A stretch of 64,000 nt of DNA from a virus. The stretch lies in the IMG/VR virus record IMGVR_UViG_3300031539_000002; one strand, given 5' to 3'. Below the pieces are notes generated by a model. That model did no database searches. It saw only the letters and a program-made list of their open reading frames with translations, and was not told where the DNA came from. The translations under genes and the position numbers were made by a program. How positions within the stretch are numbered: position 1 is the stretch's first letter; each line of letters starts with the position of its first letter. Below, piece after piece: positions 1 to 63,807 of the stretch.

Positions 1-131
1 GTGTCCAGGACCAATTCGAGATGAACGAACACATGGACTGGTCCACGCAAGTCGGACCCCATACGCAGCACGGTCGAGGGCCGTCTCCTCTGCGCGTGGC
101 CTCGGCTTGGATGGAGGCTCAAGACGCGTGA
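1..131 (+). CDS. 3' end of an upstream hypothetical (probable virion) protein, partial
   Basis: Open frame from base 3 reads ...GPSPLRVASAWMEAQDA* and ends in TGA 129-131, overlapping GTG 128 of the next gene. It carries the RVAxxW motif seen in other head-region proteins. Confidence 0.6.
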   Translation, partial: VQDQFEMNEHMDWSTQVGPHTQHGRGPSPLRVASAWMEAQDA

Positions 132-37124: not shown

Positions 37125-37168
37125 CAGGGGCGCCACTTGCGCCCGCCTCCAATCGCCTCAACGGGCGT

Positions 37169-37193
37169 GGTTTTCGCCTTATAGGCATCCCTT
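37169..37193 (+). promoter_or_regulatory. Putative late promoter motif
   Basis: GGTTTTCGCCTTATAGGCATCCCTT in an intergenic gap. Confidence 0.55.
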
Positions 37194-37208
37194 GACAGGA
37201 AGTTCGCT

Positions 37209-44772: not shown

Positions 44773-46758
44773 ATGCCAGCGGAAGGATCAGGTAAAGCAA
44801 TCGCCGGACCAGCGTCAACGACGGTTCGGACAAACGAGGGCGCACGCGTCGTGGCTGAGGTGCCGAACCATCGGACTCAGGTTCGCATTGGCAAGCCGTC
44901 CCGGGTGGTCGTTGGATCGATGCGCTCGCAAAACAAGTCGAGCTTCCGAGCAAGGGTGGCCGCTTCTTGCGGCCCCGGCAGCGGTGGCTTTGGCGGGACC
45001 GGTGGCGCATACGGCGGTGGCGGTGGCGGTGGTGGTGGCGGCGGGTTCGGAGGCAACGGGGGTGGTGGCGCAGTTGCCCAAGCATCCGCGGGCAACTTCT
45101 ATTCGCCCGAGCTGTCGACGGACTTCCTTGAGCTTCCGCAGTCTCTCAACGAGCAGTGGAACTACTACCGATTCTTCTACAACAACGAGCCGTTCGTCGG
45201 GCAGGCCCTTGACCTGCACACTGAGCTGCCGTTGTCGAAGGTCCGCCTTGCTCGCCCCAAGGCCAAAAGCAAGGCGCTTGCAGACCGGGCACTCCGTTTC
45301 TGCGAGAAGTGGGTCGAGGGCATCGGACTGCTGCAACGGCTGCTGGAGATCGTCCACGACTACTTCCTCATCGGGGAGGTCTACATCTTCTGCGAGGATG
45401 CCAACCCCGACATGCCTCGGGAGGTTCGGCAGAAGGTCGTCCGTCGCGTGGAGCACGACGGCACTCTCACAGAGCAGTGGATCGACCGCGAAGAGGCCGA
45501 TGACCTCGCTGTTGAATGGCTCAAGCAGAACTACAAGGGGCTCACGAACGTCCGCATCCTACCTCCTGAGCAGGTGCACATCCAGACGTTCCCGTTCACG
45601 GATGAAGTGATCATCGAGCTTATCCCTGACTCCAAGACGAAGCACGTCCTCGAGATGGCTGAGCAGGGGGACCGCAACGCACAACGCGTGGCAGATTCTA
45701 TGGACCCTGTGGTCATCGAGGCTCTTCGTCGCGGTGACAACATCCCGCTGTCCACGGACCCTGATGGGGGCTCGTTCGTCCACTACATGGCGAACAAGAA
45801 GTCGCAGTACGAGCCGCGCGGCCACAGCATCCTCCAGCGATGCCTCCGTACGCTCGTGTACTTCGACAAACTCCGTCAGGCGCAGACGAGTATCGCTTCG
45901 CGCCACATGACTCCTGTGCGTCTCGTCTACGCCGAGGACATGAGCGAGGCCGACACGGAGAACCTGCGCGACCAGATTGACCTCGCGCTCCAAGACCCCG
46001 ACTACTCGATCGTCACGAACTTCCAGGTCACCTGGGAGGAGATGAACTCAAACGGCCGTCTCCTTGAGCTCACGGGAGAGTACGACCTCATCAGCCGTCA
46101 GCTCTACGCGGGCCTTGGTGTGACTGAGACGTTGCTCAACGGTGAGTCGAGCTACTCGGGTGACCGCATCAACCTCGAGGTCATCAACACGCGCTACATG
46201 CTGCTTCGTGAAAACGTGCAGCGCCTCGTCGAGCAGTACTTCTTCAAGCCGATGTGTCGACGCATGGGCTTCGTGGAGGAGGACGAGGACGGCGAGATGG
46301 TGGTCATCTACCCGAAGCTGAGCTTCACCAGGCTCGCGCTCCGGGACAATCAGGACACCTTCGATGCCCTGTTCCAGCTCTACCAGAAGGGCAGCCTGGA
46401 CATCGAGACGATCCTCGACCTGCTCAACATCGACCCGGTCATGGTCAAGGAGCGCCTCGAGCGAGACTTCGCCACGTTCAACGATGCGCAGTTCAACGAA
46501 GTCCTTCGTTCGGTCTACGGCCGGTCGGGCGACCAACTCGCCGAGAACTCCAACATCGTCAACAAGATCGCGGAACAGCTCGGGCTCGAGTACAGCAAGC
46601 CCGAAGAGCCTGGCATGGGCCGATTCGCGTCCCTCAAGACCGCATCAGAGGGGGGTCTCCAAATTGGTGACGACATGGTTTCCAAGATCGCTGATGCAGT
46701 GGTCGAACGGCTCATGGGGACGCGGAAGGCGCCCGGAGAGCCCTCTGACGAGTCTTAG
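44773..46758 (+). CDS. Portal protein
   Basis: Downstream of TerL. YRFFY..EPFVGQALDLH..LPLS, YFLIGEVY and YEPRGHSILQRC are portal-like; Gly-rich N-terminal extension. Confidence 0.78.
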   Translation: MPAEGSGKAIAGPASTTVRTNEGARVVAEVPNHRTQVRIGKPSRVVVGSMRSQNKSSFRARVAASCGPGSGGFGGTGGAYGGGGGGGGGGGFGGNGGGGAVAQASAGNFYSPELSTDFLELPQSLNEQWNYYRFFYNNEPFVGQALDLHTELPLSKVRLARPKAKSKALADRALRFCEKWVEGIGLLQRLLEIVHDYFLIGEVYIFCEDANPDMPREVRQKVVRRVEHDGTLTEQWIDREEADDLAVEWLKQNYKGLTNVRILPPEQVHIQTFPFTDEVIIELIPDSKTKHVLEMAEQGDRNAQRVADSMDPVVIEALRRGDNIPLSTDPDGGSFVHYMANKKSQYEPRGHSILQRCLRTLVYFDKLRQAQTSIASRHMTPVRLVYAEDMSEADTENLRDQIDLALQDPDYSIVTNFQVTWEEMNSNGRLLELTGEYDLISRQLYAGLGVTETLLNGESSYSGDRINLEVINTRYMLLRENVQRLVEQYFFKPMCRRMGFVEEDEDGEMVVIYPKLSFTRLALRDNQDTFDALFQLYQKGSLDIETILDLLNIDPVMVKERLERDFATFNDAQFNEVLRSVYGRSGDQLAENSNIVNKIAEQLGLEYSKPEEPGMGRFASLKTASEGGLQIGDDMVSKIADAVVERLMGTRKAPGEPSDES

Positions 46759-46759
46759 C

Positions 46760-46783
46760 GGTTTTCGGTCTATCGCGGCCCTT
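46760..46783 (+). promoter_or_regulatory. Putative late promoter motif
   Basis: GGTTTTCGGTCTATCGCGGCCCTT directly before the 2H-CCA gene. Confidence 0.55.
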
Positions 46784-46799
46784 CTAGCGGAGGGTTCGC

Positions 46800-48923
46800 G
46801 TGCCCCAGCCTGCGCCACAGAACTTCACGAAAATCGCTAACCGCGTCGTCCAGAGATGGATGCGGCGAAGTGTGCGTGTGGCCAAAGCGACGGGGACCAA
46901 GACCGGCCAAGGCGAATCGGTCGGGCTGTTCATCCCGCTCCCGAAGGACCTGGCCAAGCAGTTCCCAGACTTGGGGAAGAACGACTCTTCCCCCTCTCAT
47001 GTCACCTTCCTCTACATCGGGGATTTCAAGGACAAGGAGCAGCAAGAAAAACTCGTCGAGGTCCTCCGCGAGACGATGCGGAAGTGGTGGCCCGGAGCCA
47101 AGGCCACCCTCAATGGCCTTGAGTACTTCGACCACCACGACAAGGACCGTCGTGTCCCCCACGTCGCCGTCGATTTCGACAAGGACCTGAGCGGGTTCAA
47201 ACACCGCGTCAAGCAGGAACTCAGCGACGAAGGCATCGAGGTCGGTGACAAGTTCCCTGAGTTCAAGCCTCACGTCACCCTCTCGTACATGCCCGGCATG
47301 GACTCGGAGTGGGAAGGGGAGGTGCCCGAAGGGTCCTGGAACTTCGATGAGATGGAGGTCTGGGGGCTCCCCGAGCTCCACACCATCAAACTCGGACCCT
47401 CGGAGAAGAAGGTCGCCGCATCCTGGCTCCGAGGCAAGGTGGCCGGCTGGTGGGCCATCTCCCCCGGCAACCCAGGGATCAACCCGCCTCCCGTGGACAA
47501 GGGCGGCCTACTGAATGCACTCCCTGGCACAGACCCCGATAGCGCCCGCTACAACGGAGACGGGCCGGCTGACATCATGGGCAATGCGCTCGCTGCCGTG
47601 AACCAGGAGTATATTGACGCGTGGAAGCGTCCTGCGACTCCCGAGGAGATGCAGGCAGTCTTCGACTTCGTCTACGGAGGATTCGAGCGAGCACCCGAGC
47701 ACTACCTCCCCAAAGGCGATTCTGTCAGCCTCCGGGTAGCGGCTCGTTACATGCAGTCTTCCGTCCATCGCAAAAACATCTCCCTCATGAAGTGGCTCTC
47801 GCAACTGACCCGTCGATTGGGGGTTGGCCGGGACACGTACGTCGTGGGTGGTGCTGTGCGGAACTTTTTGATCGATCAGCCGATCAAGGACATCGACATT
47901 GTCATCGATACCACGAAGGCTGGCCGTGACTCTGACTGGCTCGCCAAGCAGATCGCTCGCAACATCCCAGCTCCCACGAACGTCACCACGAATCAATATG
48001 GCGTCGCCATCCTGACCGTGAAGGGGACGTGGATGATCGGAGGGGACGACCTCAACGGCGAAGTCCTTGAGATCGCCAACGCTCGCAAGGAAAGCTATGG
48101 GGGCCAGGGCGGCAAGGGCTACAAGCCTCACGCAGTCGCCCCTGCCACAATCGATGAGGACGTGCTTCGACGCGAGTTCACGTTCAACACGCTGCTATGG
48201 CGCATGATGGACTTGGCCCATGGTCCTGACAAAGCCGAGATCATCGACCTCACTGGCTGCGGTCGTCGTGACCTCGATCAGCGTGTGGTTCGTTGTCCGC
48301 AAGACCCCGACAAGGTGTTTTCGGATGACCCGACTCGGATGCTCCGGGCCATCAAGTTCACCGGCAAGTACGGCTTCAAGATTCCTCCCGATGTGGTGCG
48401 CTCCATCAAGCGCAACGTCTCCAAGCTCAAGCGCATGCCGTGGGAGGCTGTGGCGTCGATTCTCGTGAACGACGTGATGAGTCAGCCGACTGCTCGCAAG
48501 TCTCTCAAGCAGATGAAGGACCTTGGGTTGCTCGACACTGTGTCGGAGATGATCCAGGAGCAGAAGCCGTTCGCCACGTACATGAGCAACCAGCTCCGTC
48601 GCAACCGCAAGGTCCAGTTCTTGCTCGACCTCCTCGAGCTGGGCGTCCCCGCATCGACGCCGATCTCGTTTCTCGACCGCGCAGGCCAGCAGCGGTTGCG
48701 AGACCTGACTGTTTCGATGCCTGAGAAGGAGGCCGTCGCCTTCGTCGAGAATCTCATCAAGCCTCCTGTGGACAACAAGCGCATCATCGACGTGCTCAAG
48801 TTGGAGGGCCCCGATCGCCGTCACATCACCCCGACTGCTCGGCATCTGATCCTGCAAAATCCCGAGCTCGCGTCCAAGGGACAGCATCTCACTGACGCTG
48901 TCATCAAGGGATTGAGGAAGTGA
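46800..48923 (+). CDS. Fusion of a 2H phosphoesterase, a small unknown domain and a class II CCA-type tRNA nucleotidyltransferase
   Basis: HVTF (46998) and HVTL (47271) HxT pair; VVGGAVRN...KDIDI, EDVLRREFTFN, DDPTRMLRAIKF. Confidence 0.85.
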   Translation: MPQPAPQNFTKIANRVVQRWMRRSVRVAKATGTKTGQGESVGLFIPLPKDLAKQFPDLGKNDSSPSHVTFLYIGDFKDKEQQEKLVEVLRETMRKWWPGAKATLNGLEYFDHHDKDRRVPHVAVDFDKDLSGFKHRVKQELSDEGIEVGDKFPEFKPHVTLSYMPGMDSEWEGEVPEGSWNFDEMEVWGLPELHTIKLGPSEKKVAASWLRGKVAGWWAISPGNPGINPPPVDKGGLLNALPGTDPDSARYNGDGPADIMGNALAAVNQEYIDAWKRPATPEEMQAVFDFVYGGFERAPEHYLPKGDSVSLRVAARYMQSSVHRKNISLMKWLSQLTRRLGVGRDTYVVGGAVRNFLIDQPIKDIDIVIDTTKAGRDSDWLAKQIARNIPAPTNVTTNQYGVAILTVKGTWMIGGDDLNGEVLEIANARKESYGGQGGKGYKPHAVAPATIDEDVLRREFTFNTLLWRMMDLAHGPDKAEIIDLTGCGRRDLDQRVVRCPQDPDKVFSDDPTRMLRAIKFTGKYGFKIPPDVVRSIKRNVSKLKRMPWEAVASILVNDVMSQPTARKSLKQMKDLGLLDTVSEMIQEQKPFATYMSNQLRRNRKVQFLLDLLELGVPASTPISFLDRAGQQRLRDLTVSMPEKEAVAFVENLIKPPVDNKRIIDVLKLEGPDRRHITPTARHLILQNPELASKGQHLTDAVIKGLRK

Positions 48924-51900
48924 ACGCTCTCGTCGCACGCGTGGCTGCACGCCACATGGCTGCTCAGGATGATTTCTCCGTGGGCGACGAGGTGCTGTTT
49001 GGCAAGTACAAGAACAAGCGCGGCAAGATCGTGCGTCTGTTTGAGGATGAACGCGGCATCCCATCCGTCGAGATTGAGCCCATCCCCAAGGGTCGCAAAC
49101 AGAACCGTGTGATCGGCCTCTACAAGATCTGGAAGGGCGACCATCGCAAGCAGGCCGCGTACTCCAAGGAGTTTTTGGAGTTCGTTCAGGGACGCCGTTT
49201 CCAAAACCCCGACACCGGCAACCAAGTCTTGTTCCAGAGCCTTGAGGTTCCTGAGCAGGTCAAGATTTACCAGCAGTGGGGTGCCGCACAGAACGCCCAA
49301 GAAGAGAAGCCTGAGGGCCGAGAGCGCCACGAGCCCGGAAGGCTCCCGCCTGCGTGGAACCGTGACTCGGACATGGCACGTAAGGTAGAGAAACTCGCGG
49401 AAGAGTACGCGACGGAGTACGAGGATTTCTTTGACGGAATGCGACAAGTGTCCGTGGAGGACGAGCGCTATCGAGGGGCCGAATTCGCGGGCGAGGCGGT
49501 TATGCTCCGCGAGTGGGACCGTCACATCCCTGGGTACGTGCGGTTGCCCCCCTCTTCCACTTTGGAGGCTATGAGCGACGAAGATCGGCGCATCGCGCTG
49601 ACTTCATGGGACGCCGGTGTCAAGTTCATGGACGAGGTGCTTGGGGATGGTGAACGTCTTTCCCTTTTAGAGACCATGAAGCCTTCGGGAGAAGGAGGGT
49701 CGCTGGGGTCCCCCGGAGAAGGCTGGATCGACTCGACCCACAGCCCTGGAGCCCAACGTCTGCAAGGAGCTCTCCGAGAGTTGGGTATCGAGACACACCT
49801 GCCGTCTCGAGGCATCGAAGACCATGCAAAATGGCGTGACGAAGGGGCATCGAACGACCTACTCAAGAGTGCGTTGACGAAGGCGATGGCATGGCAACGC
49901 GCCTACTTCGCTGCGATGGGTGTTGAGGATGTGATGCTTTTCCGGGGAGCCAGTCTCGGTGACGAGGTGGCACGTCAACAGGAGCCCCACCCAACCGACA
50001 AACAGCAGAAATATCTTCCTCAAGGGATTCCGGTCACGTTGCAGAGTCGCCAGGAACTCTCGAGTTTCACGATGGACCCTTACGTTGCCTACAACTTCAC
50101 TCATCGAAATCGGAGTCCGGGAGAGAGTGACGAGAGCTACGAGAGTCGGGCGGGGAATTCCCTTCGCGGAGCAGTGGCGTACCGGGTTCCTGTTGACCGG
50201 ATTGTTTTGTCCCCAGCCGCAATCCCACAGCTCGGGCCTGCAACTCCGAAAATCAAGGAGGGCTACCGAGAGGTCGAGTTCATTGTGGGGGGCATTGGGG
50301 AACTTGAAGGGCGCACGCTGCCTTCACTGGATGCGGGATACGGAGCGGGCCGGTACGACCCCGAGAAGATGAAGCTCGCGACCAAGATCACCATCGAGAT
50401 GTCCGACGAAGACGAGGATGCGTGGCATAAGAGCGTGCGACGCGAGAACAAGGGCGACCGCCGCAAACAGGCCGCGTACTCCAAGGAGTTTTTGGACTCT
50501 GTGCAGGGGCAGCGGTTCCGCAACCCCGACACAGGCAACAAGGTCGTTTTCAAGTCGCTCTCCGAAGCAGAGCAACGGAAGATCCACGAGCGATGGGAGG
50601 CCCGTCATCGTAGCCAAGACGCGTCGGGGCCCACGGTGACAGAGCGCGGCCGTACCTTCGAGACAGGCAAGCCCGTTGCGTTTGAGTTCCTCCGCAACAC
50701 TGAGAAGGCTCCCAAGGCCCCTTCGGATTCGGACCCGTACCAGCAGAAGATCGAGCCCGCAGGGTTCTATGTGACCCACAAGGACACGGACGGGGACCCA
50801 CTCCCGGGCTACGACACGGGCACCATCAGTTTTCAGAACCCGCTCGTGCTCGCGGTCAACACCAACCCTGATGGCCCGATCTACGACGAGAACTCTTGGA
50901 AGGCGCAACTCGAGCGTCAGTACGGCAAGCGTGGAAAGGCCCTCACCAAGGCCCTCCAAGCTGACGGATACGACGGCATCGTGACCGTCACCCAAGTTCG
51001 TGGAAAGCCCTACACGTCCGAGATTGTTGTGCTCGACTCCGAAAAGTCTGTGCAGAAGGGCGACGACCGTAAGCGCAGGGCACAAGAGATCGCGGGCATG
51101 GGGTACGAGGCGGCGGCGCAGCTCGACAACGATGAACTTGATAGTGTGGCGTTTGGCGTGAAGCAGGGGGTCCAAGACCTTCGCATCGACCAGCTCAAGG
51201 TCAAGTACGACGCGGATCTTGAGCAGGCTGAGCATGCGGTGTCTCGAGAGCCCGACCGCTGGAAGGAACACCTTGATGAGCCTATTGAGGTCCGTTTCAA
51301 GGATGGGGAGTTCCACATCGAGGACGGCCACCATCGGTACGTGACGGCCCAGCGCATGGGCCGCGACAGCGTGAAGGTGGACCTGACTATCGATGACAAC
51401 CCTGTGAAGAAGATCTTTGAAATGGCCGGCAAGAAAATGGCTTCCTTCCATCGTGAAGCGTGCATCATCGCCGGCCGTCGGTTCGGAGACAGTCTGTGTC
51501 TCATCAAGAACCGCGACCGTGCCTACGACGCAGAGCTCGAGATCGTGCACCTGGAGAAGGACGGCACCGAGATGGCTGTCATCCTCGATACCGTGACCGG
51601 GTACATGGAGGGCGTCAACGAGCACGGGATCGCGGTCGTCAACACAACTCTGATGGTTGTGCGCGACGAAGCCGAGGGCAAGAAGAAGTCCCCCAACGGA
51701 GACAAGGGCAAGAAGCCCCTCACGTCCAAGGACGGCCCCAAGATCTACCGCGCCCTGGCGTGTGACAACATTGAGGATGCCCTTGAGTCCTTGCGCACGG
51801 ACGACAACGGTATTCGGGGCCATACCTTCGTGGCCGACGGCAACAAGTTGTTCTCCATTGAGTGCAGCAAGACGCACCCAGCTCGCGTAACGGAACTCGA

Positions 51901-54900
51901 CCCAGACCGCGTCAACACTCGAACGAACCACGGCGTCTCGTACCCCGATGCCGGGTACACGCACGGCGAGGACTACGTTAGTTCCGTCGTGCGTCGGTGG
52001 GAGGCACAGAAACGTCTGCAGGACATCAAGCGTCCTGAGGCGGCAGCCGTGGCCCTCATTGAGGCGATCGATGAGGCTGACAGCCCGTTCAATCCGGTCC
52101 GCACCACGGACAAGATGCGAACGACGAGCCAGCTTACCATCGACACGACCAACCCGAGGTTGCTGCTCTATCTGATCCCTGGCCACGCCAAGGTCGTCAA
52201 GCGTCGCAACACGCTGCCGGATGGGCGCAAGCCCAAGATCCCTGTCCGTGTCTTCAAATACCGCAACAAGATGGAAGACCGGAAGAAGCCGGTCAACAAA
52301 GACGCCGCCTTGATCGAACGCGTCGCAGCCCGATCATTGGACAAGCTCCCCGGTGGGTTGGCCGATGAGAAGAAGCCTGAGGATTTCGATCCCGAACAGA
52401 TCGCCAAGGGCACTAAGGTCGAGCTTGAGCATACGGATGACCGTGCAGTGGCCCGTGAAGTGGCGATGGATCATCTCACTGAGGACCCGAAGTACTACGA
52501 CAAGCTTGAGACCATCGAGAAGCACGGCGCCCGCTACAAGTCCAAGAAGAAGGTCAAGACCAAGGACGGCGACGAGATGACGGTCTACGAGTACAGCGAC
52601 CGTCAAATCGCTGATCGGAACCGGGGCAAAGCAGAACGCATCGAGAAACTGCGCAAGCAGATGAAGAAGCTCCAGACCAAGGTCCGCAAGGACGTGAACT
52701 CCAAGGACGAGAAGACTCGTGACCTCGCGCTGGCAGTCGGCTTGATGGACGAGACCTTTGAGCGTGTTGGCAACGACGGGAGCGCCAAGGAAGGCCACTT
52801 CGGCGTCACCACCTGGCGGGTGAAGCACATGACCTTCGGTAAGGGCGGCGTCACGATCACGTACGTCGGCAAGTCGGGGGTTGACCAGAAGAAGAAGGTC
52901 ACGAACCCGCGCATCGTTTCGGGTCTCAAGGACGCCTGCAAAGACAAGGAGCCCAACGCTTGCGTCCTGAGCGTCACGGCTTCCGAAGTCAACGAATACC
53001 TCAAGCCGCTCGACATCACCGCCAAGGACATCCGAGGGTTCCACGCGAACCAGAAGATGAAAGAGGAACTCCGAAAGGTCCGCAAGGGGAAGCTCCCCGA
53101 AGACCCCAAGGAGAAAGAGAAGAAGCTCAAGGACGAGTTCAAGAGTGCCCTCGAGGCCACTGCTGACGCGGTAGGCCACGAGGCATCAACCTTGCGCAGC
53201 CAATACCTCGTCCCAGGCCTGGAGGATGACTACATGAGAGACGGGACCGTCAATGAGAGTCACACCAAAAAGGGCTCTACCCTCCACACCGCGGCGTTGG
53301 ACGGAACCCCAACAGAGCGCCACATCCTTGCCCATGCCCAACTCGCTCCGGTCCTGGTAACCGCCAACCGACGTTGGTGGATTCAAAAAGCTCCGAACCT
53401 GTACCGAATCGCGCGTGAAGACGAGAGGCCGCGCCCCCATATCGAGGGTGTTCGTTTCCCGCCAGAGGTCTTCACAGTGCTCTGGTACGAGGACGACGAC
53501 GGCAATCGCTATGAGATGCCCGAGGATGGTCCCGAGCATCCCGAAGGCGCCAAGTACCAACTCAGCCAGTTCCCGAACTACCTGCACGACAGCATGTTGC
53601 AGCTCAACGAGGATGGCACCTCTACGGAGATCATGAGCGGTCAGCGAGGGTTCCCTGAGGACCTTGTGACCTCCATGGTGCGCAGCGGCGAGTGGGACGT
53701 GGGCGACGCCATCATGGTCGGCGGCACGAGCTGCGAGCGCTGCATGAACGTCTTGTGCAATCGCTACTTGGGCCCGGAGGAAGGCTACCCCTACGACTCG
53801 GAAGAGTATTGGCAGTGCGGGACCCGATGCGCCATGTGTGGGCACGTCGACAACACCAACGAGCGGGTGGTCCGACAGCCCCGCTATGCGTCTCCGAGCT
53901 ACGACAGTTACGTCCAGCGCAAGCGCAGAGAAGGCGGCCCTGTGCTGTCCCGTGATGAATGGGAAGCCAAGGTCATGGGCGTCGAAGATGACGCTGACGA
54001 GACCCCTGAGGCTACCCGTGAAGACTGGGAGGCCCGTCGCAATGCTCTCATGGAGGAGCACGGCCTCGACAAGTTCCATTCGTCGTACCGTCCTGACGAG
54101 AAGCACATGACGATTGACCTCATCTCCGTTCCCAAGGAGAACAAGGGTCAAGGCAGTGCTTCAAAGGCCATGAAAGAGACGCTGGCGTGGGCTGACTCCA
54201 ACGGCGTCACGGTCACGTTGTCGCCAACTTCTGAGTTCGGTGCCTCCAAGAAGCGCCTTGAGAAGTGGTATCGCAGCATGGGCTTCGTGCCGAACAAGGG
54301 GCGCAACAAAGACTTCCGGTTCACAGACGCGATGCTCCGCGAGCCGCAGGCCAAAACGGCCACGAAATCCGATGCGGAGAACGAAGATGAGGCGGTGGCG
54401 AAGATGCTCCGCAAGGAGCCCAAACTCAAGCCTCCGCGCTACGACCTTCGTGACAACCGTACTCTCGACGACGACGACCCTGAGGACGATCTTGGCGGTG
54501 GCGATGACGGCGACCGCGACATGTCCATGAAGTGGAACAAGGTGGCGAGCCGCGTGGCTTTCCGTTGGACAGCGATTGGGCCTCGAGTCCCACGACCTGA
54601 ACGCGTTGCTCGACTGTTCTTGGCGGAGGCGCCCCCAAAGGACAAAGCCCAGCCCAAGAGCGGTCCGAGCTTCGAGGAGTGGGTCAAGAACCAGAAATTC
54701 AAGCACCCTGAGACCAGCAACGATGTTGGGTTCTCATCGCTCCCCTCTGACGAGCAGGCCAAGATCCGCGAGAAGTGGAAGGGTCAGCAACAGCCTGAGG
54801 ATGAGAGCGGCAAGGACAAGGGGAAGGGTGATGAGGATGCGAAGCGCACCAAAGAAGACGTGCAGGTCGACCTCAATAACGCGCGCGACGAGATGCGGGA

Positions 54901-57900: not shown

Positions 57901-58297
57901 CGCGAAGGAATTCGCGTGGCGTTACGCTCAGGACCACCCCGATGAGGGGGAGGTCGACATCGACAAATTAGAAGAGGCTCACAAGGGAGTGGGTAAGGAT
58001 TGGAAGATCCGGCAGTACTTCCAACAGCTCGGTGACAAGGAAGTCCAAGCCAAGTACGACCCTGAGGTCCAGAAGCTCATGCAGGACACGCATGAGGAGA
58101 TGGGCGACTTGGTGCAGCACTACGTCGACGAGTACCGGAAGCGCAATGGCCAACAGCGCAAGATGGGGAGCCGCGTGGCCCAAGCGTGGCTCGAGAAGGA
58201 ACGTCCCGTTCGCATGGCGAATGACTGGTTGGCACACGTCCGTTCGTTCCATCCAGACGACCCAAAACGTCCGATTGTCGTGCTCGACGCGGCTTGA
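48920..58297 (+). CDS. 3125-aa polyvalent protein: ART x2, ParB-like x2, Ntn hydrolase, DUF5661-like, topoisomerase IB, Cys-rich domain, GNAT, coiled coil, zincin
   Basis: FRG/SSFT/EVE; GFY..NPL..GYDG..EIVV; IEDGHHR and IVDGSHR; CII..KNRDR; ERVG/GKSG/KDIR/VGH/QYL; KGQG...WYRSMGF; HEMTH. Confidence 0.88.
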   Translation: MNALVARVAARHMAAQDDFSVGDEVLFGKYKNKRGKIVRLFEDERGIPSVEIEPIPKGRKQNRVIGLYKIWKGDHRKQAAYSKEFLEFVQGRRFQNPDTGNQVLFQSLEVPEQVKIYQQWGAAQNAQEEKPEGRERHEPGRLPPAWNRDSDMARKVEKLAEEYATEYEDFFDGMRQVSVEDERYRGAEFAGEAVMLREWDRHIPGYVRLPPSSTLEAMSDEDRRIALTSWDAGVKFMDEVLGDGERLSLLETMKPSGEGGSLGSPGEGWIDSTHSPGAQRLQGALRELGIETHLPSRGIEDHAKWRDEGASNDLLKSALTKAMAWQRAYFAAMGVEDVMLFRGASLGDEVARQQEPHPTDKQQKYLPQGIPVTLQSRQELSSFTMDPYVAYNFTHRNRSPGESDESYESRAGNSLRGAVAYRVPVDRIVLSPAAIPQLGPATPKIKEGYREVEFIVGGIGELEGRTLPSLDAGYGAGRYDPEKMKLATKITIEMSDEDEDAWHKSVRRENKGDRRKQAAYSKEFLDSVQGQRFRNPDTGNKVVFKSLSEAEQRKIHERWEARHRSQDASGPTVTERGRTFETGKPVAFEFLRNTEKAPKAPSDSDPYQQKIEPAGFYVTHKDTDGDPLPGYDTGTISFQNPLVLAVNTNPDGPIYDENSWKAQLERQYGKRGKALTKALQADGYDGIVTVTQVRGKPYTSEIVVLDSEKSVQKGDDRKRRAQEIAGMGYEAAAQLDNDELDSVAFGVKQGVQDLRIDQLKVKYDADLEQAEHAVSREPDRWKEHLDEPIEVRFKDGEFHIEDGHHRYVTAQRMGRDSVKVDLTIDDNPVKKIFEMAGKKMASFHREACIIAGRRFGDSLCLIKNRDRAYDAELEIVHLEKDGTEMAVILDTVTGYMEGVNEHGIAVVNTTLMVVRDEAEGKKKSPNGDKGKKPLTSKDGPKIYRALACDNIEDALESLRTDDNGIRGHTFVADGNKLFSIECSKTHPARVTELDPDRVNTRTNHGVSYPDAGYTHGEDYVSSVVRRWEAQKRLQDIKRPEAAAVALIEAIDEADSPFNPVRTTDKMRTTSQLTIDTTNPRLLLYLIPGHAKVVKRRNTLPDGRKPKIPVRVFKYRNKMEDRKKPVNKDAALIERVAARSLDKLPGGLADEKKPEDFDPEQIAKGTKVELEHTDDRAVAREVAMDHLTEDPKYYDKLETIEKHGARYKSKKKVKTKDGDEMTVYEYSDRQIADRNRGKAERIEKLRKQMKKLQTKVRKDVNSKDEKTRDLALAVGLMDETFERVGNDGSAKEGHFGVTTWRVKHMTFGKGGVTITYVGKSGVDQKKKVTNPRIVSGLKDACKDKEPNACVLSVTASEVNEYLKPLDITAKDIRGFHANQKMKEELRKVRKGKLPEDPKEKEKKLKDEFKSALEATADAVGHEASTLRSQYLVPGLEDDYMRDGTVNESHTKKGSTLHTAALDGTPTERHILAHAQLAPVLVTANRRWWIQKAPNLYRIAREDERPRPHIEGVRFPPEVFTVLWYEDDDGNRYEMPEDGPEHPEGAKYQLSQFPNYLHDSMLQLNEDGTSTEIMSGQRGFPEDLVTSMVRSGEWDVGDAIMVGGTSCERCMNVLCNRYLGPEEGYPYDSEEYWQCGTRCAMCGHVDNTNERVVRQPRYASPSYDSYVQRKRREGGPVLSRDEWEAKVMGVEDDADETPEATREDWEARRNALMEEHGLDKFHSSYRPDEKHMTIDLISVPKENKGQGSASKAMKETLAWADSNGVTVTLSPTSEFGASKKRLEKWYRSMGFVPNKGRNKDFRFTDAMLREPQAKTATKSDAENEDEAVAKMLRKEPKLKPPRYDLRDNRTLDDDDPEDDLGGGDDGDRDMSMKWNKVASRVAFRWTAIGPRVPRPERVARLFLAEAPPKDKAQPKSGPSFEEWVKNQKFKHPETSNDVGFSSLPSDEQAKIREKWKGQQQPEDESGKDKGKGDEDAKRTKEDVQVDLNNARDEMRDLESQMGDIENEIKDLEAKLKGFKQYENLSGDAKKQIDEHVRDTQRAIGRKKDELEDKKEEFDEAKEKVKELRAERKDPGFAQAKRKEQARKQRAERVSRAVLKAQGDMQKLLGNEDTQIPGVLAKQIAKALNNLDESEVESFSIDFQDTLQKLMGMDSSSDEALELASQAAKFGDLHGLTDPGELAVRMAQLSYAQNVVANPMNIGGKPVGVTEMDSDKYAERARASYDQFQNLPSSLRTQAARQVTEALEGLDPETHRSQELNAILTGMNLAQVAATGDSLPGRPQPSKGMASVIQAMAEKGDVDALFTTSEDYFAEQARGKMEKSLDDMTPLEVAQLATQGDSNHGYAGMVKLIEEESTPDVMRAMMKDYLIQDILNDQWGDRAIRDTMQAAGLVDADDPEVRAGVVGEANERMKPRMEQMLEARERIAQAEKEGKKPDPEDEAIVAGVLDKEKGTGLREKAKAVLDTIKDKFKKVVISPASAVLQHFVNTGDRKVLEQETLPHPDEKAKAPRPKEERDEARGGESTAPKSKRERMIERVRLKAERVKLKAQRDKVKGDEKGKYDEKIKDLDGKIEGLSKEPESDESESEQPKSREDYRAKFDGSTWGDDDAGTEYHVGDLIHKAESKEVEEVPIADIEESLKNISADEPVGSPEFKERADKADLKYPVVLMRQEDGSLEIVDGSHRAWKARETKQPLKARILEPADLEDLEQVSDADREKWDENVESQDDEEHGPGDVWETEQGNWRAKNPDGVPKSFKDKDKAEIYAKGPDEKESEGSAEKPKGAPDEAEGKGQAEKDETAEGASEGASEGASEKPKQQRRAVKDEHFDRTQDAVDSVGAPIQESFTKLADDPAFLKMSPQERYTRLGETLKEAIPGARAIQVPGAGSNAPISITVPEEHRAPGVTSRQKIRLQPNSTGGEASGKGGHLGLGVKDLLEAKTPEEIKNATARVMGTMVHEMTHIYGHHGTNPDEFDDEDKKVRHIRYISDPGEMRAHAKEFAWRYAQDHPDEGEVDIDKLEEAHKGVGKDWKIRQYFQQLGDKEVQAKYDPEVQKLMQDTHEEMGDLVQHYVDEYRKRNGQQRKMGSRVAQAWLEKERPVRMANDWLAHVRSFHPDDPKRPIVVLDAA

Positions 58298-58309
58298 AGG
58301 TCGAAAAAC

Positions 58310-58491
58310 CTTCCTTAGAAACCTCCTTTGGCCCTCGGTCAAGGTTTCTAAGGAAGCAAACCATCCCTAGCAGGCCCTAAGTAGGTTTTCCGTCCTCAGA
58401 AGGTGCGGTTGAACTTCCTTGGAGGGGTCTAGGTGCTCAGACCTTCCCTGAGAACCTTGGTCGAGGTCTGACCGAGGGTGTCGGGGAAGGT
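58310..58491 (+). other. Structured intergenic element (inverted repeats; terminator or ncRNA candidate)
   Basis: Perfect 15-bp inverted repeat 58310-58324/58342-58356; second stem 58441-58448/58484-58491. Confidence 0.5.
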
Positions 58492-58519
58492 TTGTGAACT
58501 GAAAAGTGCGGATTATTCC

Positions 58520-58535
58520 GTTTTTCACCTTATAG
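58520..58535 (+). promoter_or_regulatory. Putative late promoter motif variant
   Basis: GTTTTTCACCTTATAG resembles GGTTTTCGCCTTATAG at 37169. Confidence 0.4.
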
Positions 58536-58611
58536 CGCGACCCAAATAGACGAAGGGCTGCCCCTCCTCTCGGAGGGTCTCTGTGCGCCCATTTTCGCCA
58601 GGAGAAATTCA

Positions 58612-59121
58612 ATGCCGGATCAGCTCACGAAACAAGGCGCCTTGCAGGTCTCGAGCGACCTCGACCGCCTCGCCACCCTCTTCCAATCTGAAACCGACAC
58701 TCTTGGGGTAACCGAGAAGATCGCCAAGGACTTCGCCCTTCGTTGCGACATCCTGGCCGATCATGTCGAGAAGAAGGCTGGAGTCGAGCGCGACGAGGAC
58801 GGCACCATCAAGGACCCCGACCTCAACAAGTACGCCTCTGCACTCTCCAAGCGGGCCCAGATGGACCCCACGAAGAACATCTCCATCGACCACGGCAGCG
58901 GTTTCAACCCCGCCGAGATCGGTGAGGAGCAGTCCAAGGCCCTTCTGCGCAATCAAGACGAGCCCTACATGGACGTCTTCAAGCAGGACGAGTTCGACCA
59001 GCTTCGTGAAGTTCAGCAGAACGGCATGTTCTCGAACGCGAAGTCGGCAGCCGCCGTCATCGCCAAAATGGCCAAGCTGCTCAGCGACAACAACATCAAG
59101 TTCCCTGTCGCCGTCGGCTAA
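58612..59121 (+). CDS. Hypothetical head-region protein
   Basis: 169 aa; AGGAG RBS. Confidence 0.72.
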   Translation: MPDQLTKQGALQVSSDLDRLATLFQSETDTLGVTEKIAKDFALRCDILADHVEKKAGVERDEDGTIKDPDLNKYASALSKRAQMDPTKNISIDHGSGFNPAEIGEEQSKALLRNQDEPYMDVFKQDEFDQLREVQQNGMFSNAKSAAAVIAKMAKLLSDNNIKFPVAVG

Positions 59122-59175
59122 CACCCCTGGCGGCTTTTCACGTTCCGGTTCTCGGAGCGTCGTCAAGCCGCCTTC

Positions 59176-60186
59176 ATGGGACGCCTCATGCCCAGTCTCT
59201 CCCTACAGCAGACCAGAACGTACATCGACAGGCTCGGTGATCTCGAAAACGAGCTCACCCGATCCTGTCGTGTCGCAGAGGTCATGTCCAAAGGCGCCGA
59301 CAAAGATCAGGCGGCCGCGGGCGGTCGTCTGAAAGACGCCTGCGACTCGGCGCGGGAGCACCTCAAGTACGTCGCGGAGGCGAAGACACGCCTGCTCGAG
59401 TTCGATGGGTTCCTGCATGCGCAAAGCCAGACCATCCGTGAGTCGCTCGATCGACCACACATGGTCTCGTTCATGAACGAGGTGGGCTCCAAACTGGGGC
59501 GCTCCATGGAAAGTCACGTCGAAGCCATCGTCAGCGGTGCCATCGACGCCCTTCGCAGAGTCGCCGGCTCCATCAAGGACATGCGCGATGCGAAGGCTGG
59601 TACCGAGGGCGACGCGTCCGCCAAGGGGAGTGCCAAAGCACTCGACAAGATCTGTGACGCTGCTGAGAAGGCCATTCGAGAAGGGGTCAAGGAGCGCAAA
59701 GCTGCTCCGGCACCTGCTCCTGAGGTCGAAGTTGAAGTCGAAGTCGAACTCGACGAGGAGACCGAAAAAATGGCAGCACATGGTTACAACCTGACAGCAG
59801 GCCTTCCTCCCGAGTTCTTGGAGAATATCCAGAAGAAAAAGGATGAAGCCAAGGGCAAGAAGGACGACGACAAAGAGGACGAGAAAGACGCGGGCAAGAA
59901 AGCCTACGTCCAAGTCCAATACCTGACGGCGGGCCTTCCTCCTGAGTTCCTGGAGAACATCCAGAAGAAAAAGGACGAAGCCAAGGGCAAGAAGGACGAC
60001 GACAAAGAGGACGAGAAAGACGCGGGCAAGAAAGCCCACGGCTACACCCTCACCGCCGACTCCTTGACCCCCGGCAATGAATCCAAAGGCCCCAAGGACG
60101 AGGGCGAAGAAGACGAGGGTTGGGTTCCGGGTCATCGCACCGATGGCAAGGACAAGAAGGCCCACGGCTACACGCTTACTGCGTAG
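59176..60186 (+). CDS. Hypothetical head-region protein with repeated C-terminal peptide units
   Basis: 336 aa; LTAGLPPEFLENIQKKKDEAKGKKDDDKEDEKDAGKKA twice and HGYxLTA three times. Confidence 0.72.
   Translation: MGRLMPSLSLQQTRTYIDRLGDLENELTRSCRVAEVMSKGADKDQAAAGGRLKDACDSAREHLKYVAEAKTRLLEFDGFLHAQSQTIRESLDRPHMVSFMNEVGSKLGRSMESHVEAIVSGAIDALRRVAGSIKDMRDAKAGTEGDASAKGSAKALDKICDAAEKAIREGVKERKAAPAPAPEVEVEVEVELDEETEKMAAHGYNLTAGLPPEFLENIQKKKDEAKGKKDDDKEDEKDAGKKAYVQVQYLTAGLPPEFLENIQKKKDEAKGKKDDDKEDEKDAGKKAHGYTLTADSLTPGNESKGPKDEGEEDEGWVPGHRTDGKDKKAHGYTLTA
59791..60036 (+). repeat. Direct repeat of 114 bp, period 132 bp
   Basis: Copies 59791-59904 and 59923-60036 encode identical peptides with a few synonymous changes. 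Confidence 0.9.
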
Positions 60187-60196
60187 GAGGATCTTG

Positions 60197-60820
60197 ATGG
60201 AGCGACGAGCAGACGAAGGTAACTGGCAAGCCCGTGGACAAGAGTTCCGCGTGGGTCAGACCGTGCAGCTCGTCAACGGGGGCGAGACGGATGTGGGGCG
60301 CGTCGTTGCGGTCTGGCCGGGCATCGGCATGTGTGACGTGCAGTTCCCACACACGAGCTACCGCTTCCCCGTCGAAGACCTCCAGATCATCAATCAAGGG
60401 GACGACCCCTTCATCGCTCCCATGCACGAGGACGTTCCGGGTGGCCCCGGCTCCGAAGGCGACGTGTCCGAAGGCGCTCCTGCCACCAACGTCATCGAGG
60501 GCGAAGTGCCCCGCATCGAACTCGTCCACGAGGTCGGCAAGACCGCCGAGGAAATGACGAGCCGCGTTGCTCAAGCTTTTGTGAAGAAGTCGCTCTACTG
60601 GCACGCCACCGATCGCAAATATCGGGTGAGCCGTGAAGAGCACGCGAACGGTCACTACAAGTGCCCGGCCAAGTCCTGCACAGGCCACCTGCGTCGCGCG
60701 AACTACAAGATGGAGGACGGCCGCATGGTCAAACTCCACGCCTGCCCCGAGTGCCTGTTCATGATCCGAGCTTCGGACATCATGGACGACCATTGCGCTT
60801 CGTCGAAGGGAGCTGCCTGA
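60197..60820 (+). CDS. Hypothetical protein: SH3-like N-domain and C-terminal zinc ribbon
   Basis: AGGAGG RBS; FRVGQTV...GRVVAVW; GKTAEEMTSRVAQAF linker; CPAKSC...CPEC. Confidence 0.7.
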   Translation: MERRADEGNWQARGQEFRVGQTVQLVNGGETDVGRVVAVWPGIGMCDVQFPHTSYRFPVEDLQIINQGDDPFIAPMHEDVPGGPGSEGDVSEGAPATNVIEGEVPRIELVHEVGKTAEEMTSRVAQAFVKKSLYWHATDRKYRVSREEHANGHYKCPAKSCTGHLRRANYKMEDGRMVKLHACPECLFMIRASDIMDDHCASSKGAA

Positions 60821-60821
60821 T

Positions 60822-62330
60822 ATGGCGTTCTCTAAGACCGCTCGAGCAGACGTGACGCAGCCTTCGTGGTCGATGGACCATTGGGGCAACTTCGTGCAGC
60901 AAGCGCGTGGGCGCGTTCGTACTGCTTCAGGTTCCCCGAACCTGGTGTCCCAGGCATCGGAGATCCTCCAAGAGAACTTCTCTCCCGAGAAGTACCTCCT
61001 GACGCACGCGACCATCGTGGCGTCGGTGGATACCGATGACGTGCAGAACGTCAAGCTCGGGAACATCAACGAGCTCGGTCGCAAGGTGAATCGCCGGTGG
61101 GCGAACTACCGCATCAAGCCGGGCTGCGACATCTACATCAACAACAACCACGACGCGTGGGACCGACCGGTGCTCCTCAAGAGCTACCGAACCTTCGTCG
61201 GCGCCCACAACTTCGTGGAGCACGTTCAGATCGAGGACCAGTCGAAGGGCCGCATCATCGATGCTGCTGCCCGCGACATCGGCGACTCGGTCTACGTGGA
61301 CATCCTCATCGCGACCAACCGCCGTCACTCGAGCCTGATTCGGGACATCGAAGCTGGCCGCATGAACACGATGAGCATGGGCTGCTCCGTCACGGAAACG
61401 ATCTGCACGAAGTGCGGGAACGTGGCCGCCGACGAGACGGAGATGTGCGAGCACGTCAAGTACGCCAAGGGGCAGTACGAGTACGACTCGTTGGGACGCA
61501 AGTACCGAGTGGCCGAACTCTGCGGCCATAGTGACATCGACCCCACAGGCGGCGTGACGTTCATCGAAGCGTCATGGGTCGCGGTCCCTGCTTTCCAGGG
61601 TGCCGTGATGCGCAACATCCTTGCGCCAGGCTCCATCAACTTGGATACGCGGAGTCAGATGCAGAAGGTGCTCTCAGAGCCCCCTTCGCAGTGGACTGCC
61701 GACGATGATCAAATGGCCAAGGCCGCTCGCACACTCGAAGTGACGTTCGATGAGAACTCCCTCGATGCTGTGCAGCTCGCCGAGCGCCGTCGCCTCCAGC
61801 GTATTGCTGAGATGCCCGCCATGCCTGAGATGCCCCCAATGGGTGCTCCGGGCGAAGGTGGCGCACCAGGCGGTGAAGAAGCTGACCCGATGAAGGATCT
61901 CGAGGACGAGATCGAGAAGTACGTCCTCGACAAGATCAAGAAGAAGATTCGGGACAAGATGGTTTCGGAGGAGGACGAGGACCAGGTTTCCGAAGAGGAA
62001 CTTGCCACGTCGTCCAACGAGAACATCAACCACCAAGCAGCCAAAGTCGCTGCACTGACGAACGGTACGAAGACCCTTCTTCGCATCGCTCGCTCTGACG
62101 TGGAGTTGCTCGACGGGATGGCCCGTCTCCAGCAAAGCCACGGCATCAAAGTTTCGAGAGAACTGTACAGGACCGCCCTCCGGGTCGGGTCTACCGACGG
62201 GCACCCCTCTCTCGAAAAGTACCTCGTGCAATGTGCCGAGGTGCTTGGTCACAACCCAAACACGGGAGAATCCAAGACCTTGGTGCGTCTTGGGCGAATC
62301 CTTTCAATGCGAAAGAAGACCCGGTTCTAG
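60822..62330 (+). CDS. Putative prohead (capsid maturation) protease with zinc-finger insertion
   Basis: NFVEH...GRIID, TMSMGC, CTKCGN..CEH and FIEASWVAVPA follow the HK97/assemblin-fold His...Ser...ExSxVxxPA pattern. Position between portal and scaffold. Confidence 0.7.
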   Translation: MAFSKTARADVTQPSWSMDHWGNFVQQARGRVRTASGSPNLVSQASEILQENFSPEKYLLTHATIVASVDTDDVQNVKLGNINELGRKVNRRWANYRIKPGCDIYINNNHDAWDRPVLLKSYRTFVGAHNFVEHVQIEDQSKGRIIDAAARDIGDSVYVDILIATNRRHSSLIRDIEAGRMNTMSMGCSVTETICTKCGNVAADETEMCEHVKYAKGQYEYDSLGRKYRVAELCGHSDIDPTGGVTFIEASWVAVPAFQGAVMRNILAPGSINLDTRSQMQKVLSEPPSQWTADDDQMAKAARTLEVTFDENSLDAVQLAERRRLQRIAEMPAMPEMPPMGAPGEGGAPGGEEADPMKDLEDEIEKYVLDKIKKKIRDKMVSEEDEDQVSEEELATSSNENINHQAAKVAALTNGTKTLLRIARSDVELLDGMARLQQSHGIKVSRELYRTALRVGSTDGHPSLEKYLVQCAEVLGHNPNTGESKTLVRLGRILSMRKKTRF

Positions 62331-62361
62331 CCAGAACACCAAGTCTCAGGAGAAAAAAATC

Positions 62362-63807
62362 ATGGCACGTCAACGACTCACCCGTAAGCTGGCCGAGCAA
62401 AGCAAAAAGGCCTCCCCTCCCCCACAGATCCCCGCGGTCGATCGCACTGAGGGCCCGAGCAATCCGGCCTACTACCCCGATCCCGACGCGGACAAGTATC
62501 AGAACGGCGACACCAGCTCGTGGGCAGAAGATCCCCACAAGCCGATGGAGCCCGAGAGCCCGCCCCCGGCCATGCCCGGTAACCTGACCACGGAGAAGCT
62601 GGATCACCCCGGCACCTCCGAGTTCAGCAAGAAGCCCGAAACCCCGGAGCAAGCTGCTGCCGAAGGTGGCGGCGGTGGCAAGTCGGCGTCCCTCAAGGAG
62701 CTCGCCGAGCAGCGCGCTACCCTGTGCGTCCGTCTCGCTTCTGCAATGCTGCCCAAGTCCTCGGCCCTCGAGATCGAGGAGCGCGCTGTCAGGCTCATGG
62801 ACCTTGACGACGCAAAGCTCAAGGCCGCAATGGAGACCTTCAACGTCCTCGCCGGCGAAGAGCCCGACGAGTTCGAAGAGGGCGAAGAGTCCGAAGGGAC
62901 CAAGGAGTTCGACGAAGAGAAGGAAGGCGGCAAGAAGGCTGCTCACGAACTCACCGCGCACTCGGCACGCATCGCGAAGATTGAGGGTGCGCTTGGTCGC
63001 ATCGTCAAGGCCATGGGCCACTTCTTCGGGATGGAAGAGGGCGACGAGGGCATGAGCGACAAGGAGCTCATGGCCTACCTCATGGCCGAGGACATGGACG
63101 GCGACGGCGTCGACCAGAACGAGCCCGACTACGGCTACGGCGGTGGCGGCGAGAAGTCCTCCATGGAAGAGGAAGTGGAAGAGGAAGAGGCCATGCTTCG
63201 CGCCATGCTCGAGGAGATGGACGAGGAAATGGCTGTCATGGCTTCGGCCGCGACCGAGACCACCGAGCCTCTCGCCAAGGGTGCGGACATCCAATCGGGT
63301 GAGGGCGGCAACGTCAATCCCGATCCCGCTCCCCACACTCCCGTCGTCGCTCAGAGCGACGGTGCCGAGAAGAAGGCCAACGAGGACCCCACCGACAACG
63401 ACATCGAGATCAGCGCCTCTGGTGCTGACCCGATGGGTCTGATGGACCTCACCGCTTCGGCCGACGACGAGCTGCTTGCTCTCTACGCCGATCTCGACCT
63501 GCCCAAGACGGCCGGTGAGGAAATGGAAGAGGCCGAGGAAGCCCCGGTCGACGACGAAGCCGGAACCGATGAGAAGGCCGAAGAGGACGACATCGAGTTC
63601 GGTGCCGACGACGAGAAGAAGGGTGGCAAGAAGGCCGCACCCGTCAAGCAACGTCCGCAGCCCAAGGCGGCTTCGGCCGGCGCTCGCACGCTCGGCAATG
63701 TTGCCGGGATGCCCAAGGCTGCACACGACGAGATCGCCGAGCTCGGCAAGATCTGGGACACCGCTCCCGACGTTGCGTCTGTGTTCGGACTCCCCAGCGG
63801 AAGCTGA
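62362..63807 (+). CDS. Putative scaffolding protein
   Basis: Very acidic, low-complexity protein after the protease; AGGAG RBS; many KKA/KTA/KSA motifs. Confidence 0.6.
   Translation: MARQRLTRKLAEQSKKASPPPQIPAVDRTEGPSNPAYYPDPDADKYQNGDTSSWAEDPHKPMEPESPPPAMPGNLTTEKLDHPGTSEFSKKPETPEQAAAEGGGGGKSASLKELAEQRATLCVRLASAMLPKSSALEIEERAVRLMDLDDAKLKAAMETFNVLAGEEPDEFEEGEESEGTKEFDEEKEGGKKAAHELTAHSARIAKIEGALGRIVKAMGHFFGMEEGDEGMSDKELMAYLMAEDMDGDGVDQNEPDYGYGGGGEKSSMEEEVEEEEAMLRAMLEEMDEEMAVMASAATETTEPLAKGADIQSGEGGNVNPDPAPHTPVVAQSDGAEKKANEDPTDNDIEISASGADPMGLMDLTASADDELLALYADLDLPKTAGEEMEEAEEAPVDDEAGTDEKAEEDDIEFGADDEKKGGKKAAPVKQRPQPKAASAGARTLGNVAGMPKAAHDEIAELGKIWDTAPDVASVFGLPSGS

Follow-up and report, generated by a model that had tools for sequence, protein, structure and literature searches.

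The right third of the window, by which we mean here the full 64,000-nt stretch of IMG/VR virus record IMGVR_UViG_3300031539_000002, raises the question of what a phage does with enzymes encoded in the middle of its head genes. Between the portal and the prohead protease lie two multi-enzyme proteins of 707 and 3125 residues (hereafter polyvalent proteins 1 and 2), and it can be asked whether they travel in the capsid and whether the protease cuts them there at the short motif [KR]-x-A. All genes of the window are on the + strand, and those of this third form a head module with the order terminase, portal, 707-residue protein, 3125-residue protein, three small proteins (g169, g336 and g247), prohead protease and scaffold-like protein (Table 1). 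The nearest records by sequence are the uncultured 485-kb phage LR745208.1, Tunturiibacter phage Tunturi_5 and Bacillus phage G, with five additional related IMG/VR contigs. The module most probably belongs to a huge myophage of this group and serves its head assembly. The relatives compared below are labelled L001 (the LR745208.1 locus), L007, L008 and L009.

A preliminary description of this DNA had interpreted the two large proteins as enzyme polyproteins that the prohead protease cuts at [K/R/H]-x-A sites. The open reading frames (ORFs), their order and their enzyme domains, examined with Pfam and PHROG, are as described there, and every motif instance quoted was found at its place. With regard to the polyprotein interpretation itself, the site is plausible in view of its column conservation in scaffold-like protein, protease and portal, but the polyvalent ORFs contain it at chance density. 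The reading favoured here, with a confidence slightly better than even, is therefore a more restricted one, in which a [KR]-x-A/G protease code exists and the packaged polyvalent proteins are cut at a limited number of joints.

The strongest evidence for the code comes from the counts. Expected values were derived from shuffles within each protein, and the reversed motif Ax[KR] was used as a control of matched composition. In the six proteins portal, g169, g336, g247, protease and scaffold-like protein, [KR]xA is found 61 times against 28.7 expected (z 6.9, about twofold), while the reversed motif shows no excess (24 versus 28.5), so that the motif does mark portal, protease and scaffold as had been proposed. 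The gene set around 37209, three genes upstream of the terminase (36549-40282), is enriched as well (37 versus 17.1, z 5.4), again in a direction-specific manner, and its 805-residue protein has a homologue in L001 with the same tendency (19 versus 7.1). The products of these genes are likely to be further head-internal substrates or ejection proteins. Replication genes, in comparison, show no enrichment (99 versus 95.6), and neither do ORFs 2-6003 (37 versus 33.4), contrary to the punctuation that had been attributed to the genes at 128-6003. The proposed comparison of head region and replication proteins thus holds for the head set, but not for the polyvalent ORFs, which remain flat. An unbiased enumeration ranked K.A first among the gapped dipeptides in the small head proteins and, across the head region, RVA first among tripeptides (13 versus 2.1).

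The relatives behave in the same way, since in every one examined the enrichment resides in the scaffold-like protein, the protease or both. The scaffold-like orthologues of L001, L007, L008, L009 and Tunturi_5 (gp332, 20 versus 8.1) reach z values of 3.0-4.8, and the proteases of L001 and phage G (gp19, 10 versus 3.3) reach 3.6 and 4.1, respectively. No enrichment is seen in the major capsid protein (MCP), sheath, terminase and replication proteins of these relatives, nor in their own polyvalent proteins.

The sites are also conserved by position. At least six of those in the scaffold-like protein keep their alignment column across low-complexity orthologues that are otherwise 31-76% identical. 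In the protease, conserved sites are located at residues 5-7 (also in Tunturi_5), 33-35 and approximately 300-302, the last of them just after the catalytic domain and shared with phage G. Assemblin-type enzymes release themselves right after their catalytic domain. In the portal, a site (RVA, residues 61-63) precedes a Gly-rich stretch and the conserved core, and its column is kept in six of six orthologues, including that of phage G at 29% identity; a further site, KTA, is close to the C-terminus. Several small proteins begin with M-x(2-5)-[KR]-x-A, and when the amino-acid alphabet is reduced, [KR].A outnumbers, albeit on small counts, all other gapped dipeptides that stay conserved in poorly conserved surroundings.

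An alternative is that [KR]xA is no protease site at all, its excess being a by-product of how Lys/Ala-rich scaffold-type proteins are composed, or of the periodicity of their helices, together with their repeats; the protease would then have other cut sites or none. Helical, charged and in part repetitive sequence is indeed a feature of the scaffold-like protein, g336 and g169, the counts are raised by the repeats GGKKA and DEKDAGKKA, and a literature search found no experimental cleavage data for the clade. This explanation is nevertheless improbable, because a reversed motif of identical composition stays flat, columns are kept while their flanks diverge (orthologues 29-76% identical), and the AT-rich phage G protease carries the same signal. 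The sites moreover fall where such proteases usually cut, namely at the portal N-terminus, behind short N-terminal peptides and at the end of the catalytic domain. Since the twofold, direction-specific enrichment is confined to the expected protease substrates, with columns conserved amid divergent sequence and relatives showing the same enrichment, [KR]-x-A (with Gly tolerated at P1 and a small residue next) is probably the site of the prohead serine protease.

The enzyme itself is 43% identical to Tunturi_5 gp331, annotated as 'head maturation protease'. Its His134 and Ser185 (TMSMG) are invariant in the alignment and have aligned counterparts in Tunturi_5 and phage G. Its NCBIfam match is weak (E 0.015), and no match was obtained in Pfam or by phmmer against the PDB.

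The two large proteins between portal and protease belong to the polyvalent proteins that Iyer, Burroughs, Anand, de Souza and Aravind (2017) described in phages and conjugative elements (PMC5512222). The hallmark of these is a chain that holds two to fifteen unrelated domains, most of them enzymatic, often but not obligatorily with a zincin and/or a DdrB-like ParB domain, and processing is proposed to be carried out by the embedded zincin metallopeptidase; topoisomerase IB is mentioned once in its text. Like those proteins, the window proteins combine many unrelated enzyme domains per chain, lie beside portal- and terminase-type genes, share the repertoire of 2H, Pol-beta-type nucleotidyltransferase and GNAT domains, and are predicted to be delivered with the DNA. 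Unlike them, the window proteins carry at their joints the motif of the presumed substrates of a prohead serine protease, include a module (mod70) without Pfam family, and offer as zincin hint only a bare HEMTH motif without profile match. The idea of a lineage-specific protease code punctuating cargo proteins was not found in the consulted passages of that paper.

Polyvalent protein 1 consists of a 2H phosphoesterase (residues ~64-165), an uncharacterised region and a class II CCA/poly(A)-type nucleotidyltransferase (~344-586). Its stop codon overlaps the GTG start of the following gene by 4 nt (48920-48923, GTGA), an arrangement also seen in L008, and in some metagenomic homologues the 2H/nucleotidyltransferase part and the topoisomerase IB form one fused protein. 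Polyvalent protein 2 starts with a weak KOW-like N-terminus and continues with the NP domain (three copies in all), an AAT-like Ntn (N-terminal nucleophile) hydrolase, DUF5661, a type IB topoisomerase, a Cys-rich region, a GNAT domain, mod70, a coiled coil and a C-terminal region with the HEMTH motif, interspersed with several folded regions without family assignment. An AlphaFold2 (AF2) model of its residues 1120-1965 has a mean predicted local distance difference test (pLDDT) score of 73.5, and Foldseek matches the topoisomerase part of this segment to the variola enzyme and the GNAT part to GNATs. The topoisomerase domain is modelled at pLDDT 90-97, its best structural match is variola 2h7g (E 1.4e-12, TM 0.63 normalised to the target), with further matches to Deinococcus and human topoisomerase I, and its catalytic pentad (R1282, K1318, R1372, H1420 and Y1429) is intact, with columns invariant in 54 homologues.

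Two other elements of polyvalent protein 2 bear directly on the motifs quoted in the preliminary description. First of all, the Ntn domain starts at Cys848, within a REAC sequence conserved in L008, and the Cys-(16 residues)-N-x-D spacing at this residue is the one seen in choloylglycine hydrolase and acid ceramidase. Ntn-superfamily enzymes uncover their nucleophile through self-cleavage. The quoted site HREA/C directly precedes Cys848 and is thus the predicted point of Ntn self-cleavage, where a cut requires no head protease. Second, the two RKQA/AY sites at 49145 and 50462 are duplicates of one edge of the repeated 45-residue NP domain. BLAST self-comparison of the polyvalent proteins missed these repeats, which were then found by a hidden Markov model (HMM) built from the three copies; it detects six in the window, two of them in ORF 2-3565 and one in ORF 3562-6003, and two in L008. 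The third copy folds at pLDDT ~95, and a Pfam search with the NP domain gave no match. As for the His variant of the motif, [H]xA was counted only within [KRH]xA and has no support of its own, and the quoted LHTA reads R-T-A in some relatives.

Both proteins might instead be late intracellular enzymes that merely sit in the head operon, with topoisomerase IB helping to replicate or package a huge genome and the 2H and CCA domains serving tRNA repair. All these enzymes have obvious uses inside the cell, and the literature search found no paper on a virion-associated topoisomerase IB in phages. We give this explanation a low probability, for several relatives retain the proteins between portal and protease, the small head protein g169 is fused to a polyvalent protein in L007, and short tags are held in common with other large proteins. 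Architecture and neighbourhood, furthermore, match those of polyvalent proteins predicted to be encapsidated (PMC5512222). Across the relatives, the same polyvalent backbone keeps this place with different inserts. Thus, polyvalent protein 2 of L008 lacks residues 129-510, 714-840, 1127-1194, 1885-1900, 2528-2699 and 2773-3076 of the window protein, and in L007 the polyvalent parts are split and fused anew, with the g169 homologue at the C-terminus. LR745208.1 encodes, again between portal and protease, a stand-alone protein of 508 residues composed of topoisomerase IB and mod70. It is this constancy of place and backbone with changing inserts, together with the 508-residue protein, that argues for cargo.

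Whether the cargo would be cut depends on its joints. Within 10 residues of 8 of 14 module boundaries of polyvalent protein 2, which were defined from insertions and deletions relative to the relatives and are approximate and partly non-independent, a [KR]xA site is present, against 3.0 for random placement (P ~0.003). In polyvalent protein 1, all seven sites lie outside the Pfam/PHROG envelopes, in 49% of the protein (0.51^7 = 0.009, calculated by hand). In the AF2 segment, the joint sites KKG 1450-52, RYA 1655-57, KTA 1812-14, KVA/RVA 1874-80 and RVA 1895-97 are in coil or low-confidence stretches; the sites within the topoisomerase IB and GNAT domains are in helices at pLDDT ~95. The proposal that the motif lies at domain boundaries of the enzyme ORFs is thus supported by these joints, though in a weaker version, and not by the overall density.

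Among the joints, the best defined are those of mod70, a charged module of approximately 70 residues that is mostly of low pLDDT and predicted to be disordered, and for which a Pfam search gave no family. The family pattern is TKS..EDEA..KPPRxDLR..acidic..NYKRVA. Among 1.84 billion representatives, its profile matches 550 clusters when E<=1e-3 is required and 379 when the limit is E<=1e-10. In the best 150 of them the module stands at the N-terminus 54 times, at the C-terminus 12 times and inside the protein 84 times, with topoisomerase IB upstream in 61 and inserts of 0 to 1449 residues between the two. Over 150 diverse homologues, the upstream edge [KR]-x-[AGS]-T-K has a small P1 in 98% and a basic P3 in 70%, the downstream edge N-Y-K-[KR]-V-[AG] has Ala or Gly at P1 in 97%, and the basic P3 at the two edges ranges over 64-70%. 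N-terminal forms start with MDRFA-TKD, so that the edge motif is kept with the module at residue 3-5. The topoisomerase is flanked in a comparable manner across 54 homologues, by RVA-ARYKxKK before and KK[GA]-S after the domain, which in the window read KHGA-RYK and KKG-S.

Several results weigh against cleavage of the polyvalent proteins, besides the approximate nature of the boundaries. Polyvalent proteins 1 and 2 contain 7 and 36 motifs versus 6.9 and 43 expected, together 43 versus 50, which is chance density, and in 134 mod70-bearing proteins the ratio is 1.03 (1.18 for the reversed motif), as in ordinary proteins, the motif being neither enriched nor avoided. Conservation in L008 does not discriminate, with 13 of 18 polyvalent-ORF sites kept (72%) versus 48-69% for control motifs, and the quoted MKLA site reads HLA there. 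Seven of the 12 sites of the AF2 segment fall in the low-confidence 38% of its residues, which is not significant (P ~0.13, estimated by hand). RVA often belongs to a conserved helix, RVAxR[FWY]L, in which only 51 of 69 cases have Ala at the third position; this variability suggests a tag or structural element rather than a scissile bond. Phage G and Tunturi_5 have no mod70, and the AF2 model of the protease, computed from a four-sequence alignment, has a mean pLDDT of 41 and is unusable for the fold. As HREA/C is a predicted Ntn self-cleavage site, RKQA/AY a single repeat edge and RVAxR[FWY]L tag-like, several of the sites originally quoted are otherwise explained.

These results feed a further explanation, according to which the polyvalent proteins are packaged but left uncut by the prohead protease. 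The [KR]xA at the joints would then belong to addressing or structural elements travelling with the fused modules (RVAxR[FWY]L amphipathic helices, mod70 edges and the NP edge), and the sole processing would be intrinsic, at Ala847/Cys848 of the Ntn domain and perhaps by the HEMTH region. Chance density in the polyvalent ORFs, the location of RVA within a longer conserved helix of variable third residue, RKQA/AY as the first conserved stretch of a repeated domain and the Ntn signature at Cys848 all agree with it, and the N4 virion RNA polymerase, discussed in PMC5512222, offers a precedent for packaging without cleavage. On the other hand, the identical three-residue pattern is enriched and conserved in scaffold-like protein, protease and portal, a small residue occupies P1 at either edge of mod70 in ~97-98% of 150 homologues with the edges in predicted coil or disorder, and matching exposed sites within a protease-filled prohead would be expected to be cut. 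Uncut packaging is accordingly rated as rather unlikely, and cleavage of the polyvalent proteins at [KR]xA, taken by itself, as an evenly balanced matter.

From the anatomy of the module, the motif statistics, the positional conservation and the spread of mod70, we infer a course of protease action, packaging, cleavage and ejection for the favoured reading of a code with limited joint cleavage. Protease, scaffold-like protein, small head proteins, the products of the 36.5-40.3 kb genes and the polyvalent proteins would co-assemble into the prohead. The protease would then trim the portal N-terminus, take off short N-terminal peptides, free itself from its own C-terminal scaffold-like tail and cut the scaffold-like protein into pieces, thereby dismantling the scaffold. 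The polyvalent proteins would be opened at a few exposed joints, mainly those next to topoisomerase IB, the DUF5661 insert and mod70, yielding a few large fragments instead of single domains, to which the Ntn hydrolase would add one self-cleavage before Cys848. Finally, these fragments would exit the capsid with the DNA, carrying the 2H phosphoesterase, CCA-adding enzyme, topoisomerase IB, GNAT and Ntn hydrolase.

A wider generalisation, tentative and rather doubtful at present, would see here a cargo platform widespread in huge phages (at least 550 clusters), in which topoisomerase IB and a protein of ~640-1000 residues are joined by the disordered mod70 between two prohead-protease sites. 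In such a platform, mod70 would be a removable capsid-targeting or docking peptide, the joints would accept enzyme inserts of 0-1449 residues, and a poxvirus-like topoisomerase with a changeable enzyme set would be injected and freed by the hitherto undescribed [KR]-x-A/G code.

Compared with the closest known systems, polyvalent proteins as such and the processing of internal proteins by the prohead protease in T4, phiKZ and SPN3US are already known, with T4 gp21 cutting at L/I-x-E and the phiKZ/SPN3US-like gp245 at A-x-E (PMC10052503). Shared with these phages would be a short three-residue code common to portal, scaffold, protease and head-internal proteins, many sites in scaffold-type proteins and the removal of short N-terminal propeptides, all predicted in the case of the window. 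Unlike theirs, the predicted code of the window has a basic P3 and Ala/Gly at P1 instead of Glu, and multi-enzyme proteins with internal sites (707 and 3125 residues) are among its presumed targets. Herpesvirus assemblin cuts (V/L)-x-A/S at its release and maturation sites. The window protease resembles it in its predicted Ala at P1 and small P1', in its fusion to a C-terminal scaffold-like part and in a conserved site after the catalytic domain reminiscent of the release site; it differs in that P3 is basic rather than hydrophobic, and the PDB search gave no sequence match that would point to a related fold. Poxvirus type IB topoisomerase is packaged in the virion. The window domain has it as best structural match, with the pentad intact, and its gene position suggests a possible virion association; unlike the poxvirus enzyme, it is embedded in a phage polyvalent protein. 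New here are the predicted basic-x-Ala code of the clade, its presence at polyvalent joints and the topoisomerase IB-mod70 backbone in a head module, and the literature search retrieved no earlier report of a cleavage motif in phage G or related phages.

If true, the code would predict the head-protease specificity of the phage G, Tunturi_5 and megaphage group, which can be checked on two cultured phages, and would provide a rule for where giant polyvalent proteins are cut, hence for which enzymes arrive as separate molecules. Likewise, the topoisomerase IB-mod70 backbone would make topoisomerase IB a bacteriophage virion enzyme, as in poxviruses.

Table 1. Features of the head module and upstream genes, with positions in the window.
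Feature	Position	Strand	Evidence and remarks
Three genes without assigned function, upstream of terminase	36549..40282	+	[KR]xA 37 vs 17.1
Large terminase	42089-43993	+	Start of head module
Portal, 661 aa	44773..46758	+	phrog_16240, E 1e-30; 64% identical to LR745208.1, 29% to phage G portal
Polyvalent protein 1, 707 aa	46800..48923	+	PF13563, PF01743, phrog_2244
Polyvalent protein 2, 3125 aa	48920..58297	+	Pfam and PHROG matches, module indels vs relatives, AF2, Foldseek
NP domain copies 1-3 (~45 aa, FxNPxTGNxVxFxSL)	49145..49279, 50462-50599, 54668-54781	+	HMM
Ntn-hydrolase (AAT/peptidase C45-like) domain	51461..52099	+	PF03417, E 5.6e-8; starts at Cys848
Type IB topoisomerase domain, residues 1205-1449	52532..53266	+	PF01028, E 3.9e-24
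mod70, residues 1809-1885, ~70-aa charged module	54344..54574	+	KTA-TKS...KPPRxDLR...acidic...KWNKVA-SRVA-FRW
Small head protein g169	58612..59121	+	Motif-rich: [KR]xA 7 vs 2.2 expected
Small head protein g336	59176..60186	+	Internal repeats; [KR]xA 13 vs 6.9 expected
Small Zn-ribbon head protein g247	60197..60820	+	Orthologues in 6 relatives; start placed by orthologues; N-terminus MERRA-D
Prohead serine protease, 502 aa, with C-terminal scaffold-like extension	60822..62330	+	phrog_18299 (E 1.2e-11), phrog_2774 (E 8e-23)
Scaffold-like acidic protein, 481 aa	62362..63807	+	15 [KR]xA sites, at least 6 column-conserved

The start of the scaffold-like protein at 62362 was set by its orthologues and lies 43 codons inside ORF 62233. 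The tandem repeats of g336 (DEKDAGKKA and HGYTLTA) comprise DDKEDEKDAGKKA twice and HGYTLTA three times, in a copy number unlike that of the L008 orthologue.

Polyvalent protein 2 also holds several bare motifs, HEMTH at residues 2956-2960 and DGHHR/DGSHR at ~802 and ~2679. These regions have no matches in Pfam or NCBIfam, and phmmer against the PDB gave nothing meaningful for them, its matches to CFAP144 being rejected as charged-helix matches. In the search for a zincin or ParB domain, the nearest atlas cluster with a Pfam family was LPD23 at 0.88, which is a lead at most.

In the relatives, the scaffold-like gene is followed by a decoration-like protein and then by an MCP of ~290 residues without delta domain, ~1 kb after the scaffold-like gene, so that the MCP of the window phage is expected beyond the window end. 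The MCPs of the clade (L001:22412-23287 and orthologues) have G-R-x-K-L-A-A-S in common at residues ~22-29, and the conserved KLA-AS within it (residues ~25-29) could serve for cleavage or else contribute to the structure of the N-arm.

The protease genes of L008 (10658-12136) and L009 (10559-11575) carry in-frame insertions of ~490 and ~340 residues, respectively, near the conserved TKCGN...ETEMCEH, from which the window protease is free. These insertions match LAGLIDADG and, weakly, intein splicing domains, and look like inteins within a head protease.

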